Positions 19,356-20,151 of a stretch of 64,000 nt of DNA are shown here, piece after piece. Position numbers and translations under genes: made by a program. The first letter of the stretch is position 1, and each line of letters starts with the position of its first letter. The notes below the pieces were generated by a model, which saw nothing but the letters and a program-made list of their open reading frames with translations, was not told the origin of the DNA and did not search any database. Origin of the DNA: Escherichia coli. GTDB lineage: Bacteria; Pseudomonadota; Gammaproteobacteria; Enterobacterales; Enterobacteriaceae. Location of the stretch: assembly GCF_041248615.1 (NCBI RefSeq), contig NZ_CP158426.1, one strand, 5' to 3'.

Positions 19356-19449
19356 TGTACCGACCGGGCAGTGTTGCTGCCCGGTTCAAACATCATGGGA
19401 TTCTGTGGTAAACTTCTCGCGATTTTGTGAAATCCTGGTTGAGGTATCT

Positions 19450-20151
19450 CTGAACACACCGGCACAGCTCTCTTTGCCACTTTATCTTCCTGACGACGAA
19501 ACCTTTGCAAGTTTCTGGCCGGGGGATAACTCCTCTTTACTGGCCGCGCTGCAAAACGTGCTGCGTCAGGAACATAGCGGTTACATCTATCTCTGGGCAC
19601 GCGAAGGCGCGGGGCGCAGCCATCTGCTGCACGCGGCTTGCGCGGAATTGTCGCAGCGTGGCGATGCGGTGGGCTATGTCCCGCTGGATAAACGCACCTG
19701 GTTTGTTCCGGAAGTGCTCGACGGTATGGAGCATTTGTCGCTGGTCTGTATCGACAACATTGAGTGTATTGCAGGCGATGAGTTGTGGGAGATGGCGATT
19801 TTCGATCTCTACAATCGAATTCTGGAATCGGGCAAAACACGGTTGTTAATCACCGGCGATCGTCCACCGCGGCAGTTGAATCTGGGATTACCGGATCTCG
19901 CGTCGCGTCTCGACTGGGGGCAGATCTACAAATTGCAGCCACTTTCTGATGAAGATAAGTTGCAGGCGCTACAGTTACGCGCGCGTTTGCGTGGTTTTGA
20001 ACTGCCGGAAGATGTGGGGCGTTTCTTGTTGAAGCGGCTCGACAGAGAGATGCGCACGTTATTTATGACGTTGGATCAGTTGGATCGTGCGTCGATTACC
20101 GCGCAACGTAAGCTGACCATTCCGTTTGTGAAAGAAATTCTGAAACTGTAG
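19450..20151 (+). CDS. hda: DnaA-inactivating protein Hda (non-canonical CTG start)
   Basis: 233 aa from CTG at 19450 ((M)[18 protein letters not shown]); AAA+ motifs; longest ORF (GTG 19405) is 15 codons longer. Confidence 0.85.

Follow-up and report, generated by a model that had tools for sequence, protein, structure and literature searches.

The CTG initiation codon of hda in an Escherichia coli strain, its conservation in Enterobacterales and a putative promoter element at the upstream GTG

The window (the whole stretch of E. coli DNA that was analysed, 64,000 nucleotides) carries on its plus strand the genes upp (17354-17980) and uraA (18066-19355), followed by hda. Beyond hda, on the minus strand, come arsC/yfgD (20257-20616) and bepA/yfgC (20637-22100). 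The longest open reading frame that contains hda (19405..20151, plus strand) opens with GTG 19405-19407, ends at the stop codon 20149-20151 and would encode 248 aa; an earlier note on this DNA had placed its start at this GTG, and both coordinates and frame were exact. The 16th codon of this frame is CTG 19450-19452, from which 233 codons and the stop remain. Shortly before it lies GAGGT (19441-19445), the GAGG of which (19441-19444) ends 5 nt 5' of the CTG. The features of this region are the following:

19364..19384, plus strand: GC-rich, conserved hairpin CCGGGCAG-tgttg-CTGCCCGG that follows closely on the stop codon of uraA (19353-19355) and has no clear U-tract
19404..19414, plus strand: TGTGgTAAACT, putative extended -10 element of hda (TRTGn + TAAACT), proposed from conservation, with GTG 19405-19407 inside it
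19405..19407, plus strand: GTG that opens the longest reading frame (248 aa), the start annotated in 2006, not the functional start
19421..19422, plus strand: predicted hda transcription start, 7-8 nt after the -10 hexamer, giving a leader of ~28 nt
19441..19445, plus strand: GAGGT, Shine-Dalgarno sequence for the CTG, 100% conserved in 81 Enterobacteriaceae and gap-free up to the CTG
19450..19452, plus strand: CTG (CUG) initiation codon of hda, from its presence in 88/88 species, the RefSeq/PGAP and K-12 coding sequence starts and the literature
19450..20151, plus strand: coding sequence of hda (DnaA regulatory inactivator Hda), 233 codons and stop, from equivalog HMMs and identity to HDA_ECOLI
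19465..19482, plus strand: beta-clamp-binding motif QLSLPL, codons 6-11, from the translation and the Hda-clamp structure

After each initiation the replication initiator DnaA is switched off, mainly through the RIDA pathway, of which Hda is the key factor. The 233-aa protein encoded here is exactly the UniProt sequence HDA_ECOLI. It obtains 474.8 bits with the NCBIfam equivalog NF005982 (cutoff 268), and the 248-aa form 476.6 bits, i.e., the 15 additional residues contribute only 1.8 bits to the score; with TIGR03420 the score is 281.7 bits (cutoff 194.8). Pfam domains PF00308 and PF22688 are on record for the Hda cluster. In the HMMER alignment, residues 16-248 of the window ORF are all identical to the Hda part of PDB 5X06_E, and this identity covers both AAA+ domains, base and lid, together with the arginine finger of box VII (Arg153). 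At the DNA level, a 901-bp query (19300-20200) matched 5425 of 5426 complete E. coli genomes, many of them at 100% identity, and the segment 19340-19497, which includes the hairpin, the GTG, the Shine-Dalgarno sequence, the CTG and the first codons, is identical to that of K-12 MG1655. Protein, DNA (from 5' of the GTG to past the CTG) and synteny (uraA-hda-arsC(yfgD)-bepA) are those of K-12, with no difference at the locus. The window gene is the well-studied hda itself, in another E. coli strain, and its product would be expected to have RIDA activity (the clamp-dependent stimulation of DnaA-ATP hydrolysis), given its identity to the characterised K-12 protein.

The window strain and K-12 differ elsewhere, for example in positions 1-7141, which are the right end of a prophage (GC 38-47%) that abuts yfgI. 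At least 80% of the first 9.2 kb of the window is present in only 4 of the 5426 complete E. coli genomes. The prophage genes include those for a DUF4760 protein, a BRO-N protein (866-1576, minus strand), a GH28-related tailspike-like protein (2345-4927), two holins, a GH19 endolysin (6033-6662) and a DUF2514 protein (6659-7141). Two Rfam hits, both on the minus strand and above the gathering score, fall within this region just upstream of the BRO-N gene: a C4 antisense RNA (1625-1708, 66 bits) and an isrK Hfq-binding RNA (1733-1809, 67.2 bits). They are small RNAs of the phage immunity or anti-repressor type.

The CTG start of hda has been known since 2008 and is found in reference annotations, so that its recognition in this DNA is a correct but ordinary observation. 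In the K-12 reference, hda (b2496, 2618075-2618776) is a 702-nt coding sequence that begins at the CTG (NP_416991.2), and RefSeq/PGAP annotates other E. coli strains with WP_001307333.1, whose start maps to window position 19450. The 2006 and 2014 annotations place the hda start 45 nt apart (Nakahigashi et al., 2016, PMC4909307, Table S3). In that study, tetracycline-inhibited ribosome profiling (TetRP) gave hda the manual class "3. 2014", i.e., a signal at the CTG site; this signal was seen by manual inspection only, and the automated TetRP call was "no change". The crystal structure of the Hda-clamp complex numbers Hda 1-233 and shows 6-QLSLPL-11 bound in the clamp cleft (Kim et al., 2017, PMC5397184), the same residues, 6-11, that QLSLPL occupies in the CTG-initiated form of the window protein. 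The deposited Hda chain of 5X06 consists of a tag followed by MNTPAQ. EcoGene 3.0 reports the K-12 CUG start as verified, citing the 2008 work. The match to the published CUG-initiated 233-aa form, as claimed in the earlier note, was therefore borne out by the 702-nt reference coding sequence, the K-12-identical DNA, the TetRP manual class and the 1-233 numbering of the structure. The direct proof of the start comes second-hand from K-12, where the DNA is identical (EcoGene 3.0 and the TetRP manual class), and for this particular strain the CTG start would follow from that identity. Two other reviews or papers on Hda make no mention of its start codon.

A way to evaluate the CTG independently of these sources is to compare it across species. 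We have used the hda loci of the window and of 80 other Enterobacteriaceae species (the best 80 of ~413 relatives), 81 in total, to which seven genera from other Enterobacterales families were added (Yersinia, Erwinia, Proteus, Dickeya, Hafnia, Serratia and Xenorhabdus), making 88 species. This alignment of orthologues, proposed as a check in the earlier note, gave CTG at the codon homologous to 19450 in 88/88 species, always with GAGG 5 nt before it, and all 88 genes count 233 codons from the CTG without any indel. CTG is the commonest leucine codon in E. coli, and its mere presence would be unremarkable. However, the remaining 24 columns of invariant leucine use three to six synonymous codons each, and the conservation of this CTG in all the species thus exceeds chance. 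Of the 131 columns with an invariant amino acid other than Met or Trp, just two are represented by a single codon, namely codon 1 (CTG) and codon 4 (CCG). Single-codon use at the CTG therefore implies a constraint at the nucleotide level, as expected of a start codon. As for the CCG at codon 4 (19459-19461), the earliest codons of the initiation region may themselves be constrained.

The position of the clamp motif points in the same direction. Its glutamine is at residue 2-7 in 86 of 123 distant Hda homologues, with a mode of 4; in E. coli it is residue 6 of the short form and residue 21 of the long one. Caulobacter HdaA and other proteobacterial homologues share with hda the AAA+ DnaA-like fold (PMC3836487), and the homologues carry a QL-x-L-x-L clamp motif no more than a few residues into the chain. 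The motif must sit at the N-terminus of Hda, and consequently a wrong start either makes the protein 15 residues too long (248 aa) or deprives it of the motif (225 aa). The latter is the outcome of a canonical start further downstream, the first of which is the TTG of codon 9 or lies near codon 37, both of them deleting the clamp motif. Initiation at the TTG of codon 9 (19474, 225 aa) would agree with the annotation of Klebsiella KPN_02819 and of some Serratia and Pantoea entries; this TTG is the first downstream canonical start in 42/81 Enterobacteriaceae, and 225-aa entries are on record. But it would remove the Q-L-S of a motif that is clamp-bound in the crystal structure, it has no suitably placed Shine-Dalgarno sequence, and codon 9 differs among the 88 species (TTG in 43, CTG in 42 and TTA in 3). 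We regard a downstream canonical start of this kind as extremely improbable.

As the earlier note had maintained, the conserved Hda N-terminus begins at CTG 19450: 5' of it, orthologues share only the GAGGT nucleotides and no reading frame. In 46/81 Enterobacteriaceae, reading back in frame from the CTG, one meets a stop before any ATG, GTG or TTG, often after no more than 4-6 codons. The upstream canonical starts of the other species are found at non-homologous positions, 5, 8, 9, 15, 16 or 24 codons before the CTG. One-base indels near 19433/19434 shift the upstream frame in Salmonella, in Citrobacter and even in one Escherichia species representative (L005), and the position homologous to GTG 19405 is out of frame or separated by a stop from the CTG in most species. 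The sequence 5' of the Shine-Dalgarno sequence does not behave as coding. The near-cognate in-frame codons ATC 19432 and CTG 19435 were also considered as starts and rejected, lacking a Shine-Dalgarno sequence and not being conserved in frame. That GTG 19405 might be the sole true start of a 248-aa Hda, as annotated in 2006 and in many database records, has in its favour that it opens the longest ORF with a canonical start and that the 248-aa form is widely deposited; it is contradicted by all the comparative, annotation and literature evidence, and we consider it effectively refuted.

The nucleotides of the GTG are nevertheless conserved, and the pattern of this conservation suggests a different role for them. 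Among the 81 Enterobacteriaceae, the TG at 19406-07 is 100% conserved, 19408 is free (31%), and the six positions of TAAACT (19409-14) are conserved at 100, 100, 88, 100, 100 and 100%, without any third-position wobble. All 88 species have TGnTAnnnT at 33-39 nt upstream of the CTG. A TRTGn followed by a -10 hexamer is what characterises extended -10 promoter elements. We infer that TGnTAAACT is the extended -10 element of hda and that GTG 19405 is part of the promoter. Since TRTG contains a GTG or an ATG, automated callers often meet one of these codons there. The own mRNA of hda would then begin at ~19421 (G19421 is 100% conserved), which would leave the GTG out of the transcript. The putative -35 and -10 hexamers match the consensus at 8/12 positions, one below the threshold of 9/12 used in the consensus sigma-70 promoter and terminator scan of 19250-19550, which made no call. 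Among the published transcription start data of three studies, the only hda start reported consists of two reads, 620 nt upstream and inside uraA (Kim et al., 2012), and no hda start was found in the supplements of Romero et al. (2014) or of Shigella M90T. The predicted leader (19421-19500) has less structure than its shuffled counterparts (z = +1.41); no structured RNA element was found in it, and Rfam gave no hit at the locus.

Near the predicted transcription start there is a further block, CG-n-TTTT (19420-19426), with 91-100% conservation in the 81 Enterobacteriaceae except at 19422 (54%) and 19426 (81%). It could be a discriminator, an initial transcribed region or a regulator site. Outside the Enterobacterales, one hda locus (L093, with a GTG start and a DUF2066 gene upstream) has TGtTACACT ~45 nt upstream of its position 401, and the extended -10 architecture may predate the CTG start.

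A DnaA box was also examined as an explanation for the conserved stretch. TGTGGTAAA (19404-19412), which overlaps the putative -10 element, agrees at 7/9 positions with TGTGGATAA, the DnaA-box consensus in reverse complement and, if DnaA did bind there, it would make a tidy feedback loop at the promoter of its own inactivator. We do not favour the box as the principal explanation. The weakest conservation falls on its first two bases (72 and 91%), and conservation runs on to the C-T at 19413-19414, outside the box, which fits TRTGnTAnnnT.

Transcripts that do contain the GTG may nonetheless exist. The stem columns of the hairpin after uraA are 81-100% conserved, save for a compensatory change at 19370/19378 (A-T in E. 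coli, G-C in the majority). A simple terminator scan did not call this hairpin, which lacks a T-run. It is probably a weak uraA terminator, and as such it may let some upp-uraA read-through into hda. Along these lines, one can envisage dual initiation, mostly at the CTG and with a minor 248-aa isoform made from GTG 19405 on read-through transcripts. In E. coli, Escherichia sp. and E. albertii the GTG shares the reading frame of the CTG; the uncalled hairpin without a U-tract, the weak start inside uraA (Kim et al., 2012) and the automated TetRP call that left the start unmoved (Nakahigashi et al., 2016) would all be compatible with such an isoform. Against it, no Shine-Dalgarno sequence precedes the GTG (ATGGGATTCTGTG), the single-base indels break the frame even within Escherichia, 46/81 of the Enterobacteriaceae have no upstream start at all, the conservation of the extension has no codon periodicity, and its 15 residues would bury the N-terminal clamp motif, unlike in the homologues. 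A minor isoform from the GTG therefore seems to us improbable, and initiation at the CTG, with the GTG as part of the promoter, is the reading that we prefer.

The earlier note had also warned that pipelines that take the longest ORF will mis-call this start. For generic callers the warning holds: at least 1000 contigs carry the 248-aa form, and at least 1000 the 233-aa form; miscalls of 248, 241, 235 and 225 aa are frequent in public databases, and calls of ~200 aa also occur. It does not apply to NCBI PGAP/RefSeq, where hda of E. coli genomes already starts at the CTG. Tabulated for 134 Enterobacterales database proteins, the position of the glutamine in the clamp motif displays the variety of the calls:

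Glutamine at position 6 (CTG call): 18/134 proteins
Position 8 (235-aa form, starting on the GTG inside GAGGTG): 57/134
Position 11: 9/134
Position 14 (241-aa form, Salmonella type): 9/134
Position 21 (248-aa form): 18/134
Other positions (10, 16, 17, 23 and beyond): 12/134
Clamp motif truncated away: 11/134

Klebsiella KPN_02819, the truncated form referred to above, is annotated at 678 nt. The 235-aa form deserves a separate comment. In the seven genera outside the Enterobacteriaceae (L082-L088, position 601-609 of each locus) the Shine-Dalgarno sequence reads GAGGTG, so that a GTG stands in frame with the conserved CTG, two codons ahead of it, and the annotated 235-aa Hda starts on that GTG. 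In the 81 Enterobacteriaceae the base after GAGGT is A, C or T, never G. We think that the CTG is the start in these seven genera too, because the GTG has no Shine-Dalgarno sequence of its own and GAGGTG merely extends the complementarity to the 3' end of the 16S rRNA. From this arrangement, the 235-aa starts in Yersinia, Erwinia, Proteus, Dickeya, Hafnia, Serratia and Xenorhabdus are probably systematic miscalls. The NF005982 profile (235 positions) itself begins two residues before the CTG. The three closest representatives examined from outside the Enterobacterales have GTG, GTG and TTG starts, and the use of CTG appears to be confined to this order.

These observations taken together are best explained by initiation at the CUG, and in this reading as a whole (the CUG start served by GAGGU, the GTG as part of the promoter and a weak start that keeps Hda scarce) we have high confidence. 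The hda mRNA, probably beginning at ~19421, would be translated from CUG 19450-19452, read as fMet by the initiator tRNA, to give the 233-aa Hda with its clamp-binding QLSLPL at residues 6-11. The invariant GAGGU, with its core GAGG ending 5 nt upstream, would position the ribosome in a poorly structured leader. GTG 19405 would be no start codon at all, belonging instead to the conserved TGnTAAACT of the extended -10 element. The weak start codon would keep Hda scarce, and scarcity would fit a catalytic regulator that triggers DnaA-ATP hydrolysis from DNA-loaded clamps (RIDA). The 2008 work of Su'etsugu and colleagues, in J Biol Chem 283:36118, reportedly proposed that the CUG limits Hda to ~100 molecules per cell, and Hda with the correct start reportedly had high RIDA activity; the dosage-limiting rationale is one that we infer.

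Two other genes help to put this start into perspective. The classic weak non-canonical start for dosage control is the AUU of infC (IF3), which works in a demonstrated IF3 autoregulatory loop. Like hda, infC has kept a conserved non-canonical start despite a canonical codon being one mutation away, and its protein level is limited or controlled. We know of no IF3-type feedback for hda, unlike infC, and the comparison is one of analogy only. The second gene is yfjD, the other E. coli K-12 gene with a verified CTG start in EcoGene 3.0. There too the CTG was predicted from conservation and inspection of the ribosome-binding site, mutagenesis confirmed it and the old canonical start proved irrelevant. 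The proteins are unrelated, and the CTG of yfjD is upstream of an old TTG, whereas that of hda is downstream of an old GTG.

For the field the start of E. coli hda is no novelty: the matter was resolved in 2008, and by 2014 the reference annotation had been put right. What is new here is incremental, namely the invariance of the CTG and its Shine-Dalgarno sequence throughout the order, the promoter explanation for the decoy GTG and the catalogue of miscalls. The correct start matters wherever Hda is expressed, modelled or counted, and many non-RefSeq and older entries still carry wrong ones; outside the Enterobacteriaceae the annotated 235-aa start may also be wrong.

A broader interpretation, which we hold as tentative, is that extended -10, ~28-nt leader, GAGG, 5-nt spacer and CUG form a fixed module of the Enterobacterales, maintained by purifying selection for a low dose of Hda. 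If so, the common 235-aa "M(L/I)LNTPAQ" annotations would be systematic miscalls on the GTG inside GAGGTG, and the same miscall would show in positions 1 and 2 of the NF005982 profile. The synthesis of Hda from a weak codon could also respond to the status of IF3 or of the initiator tRNA, in which case the control of replication would be coupled to the translational capacity of the cell.
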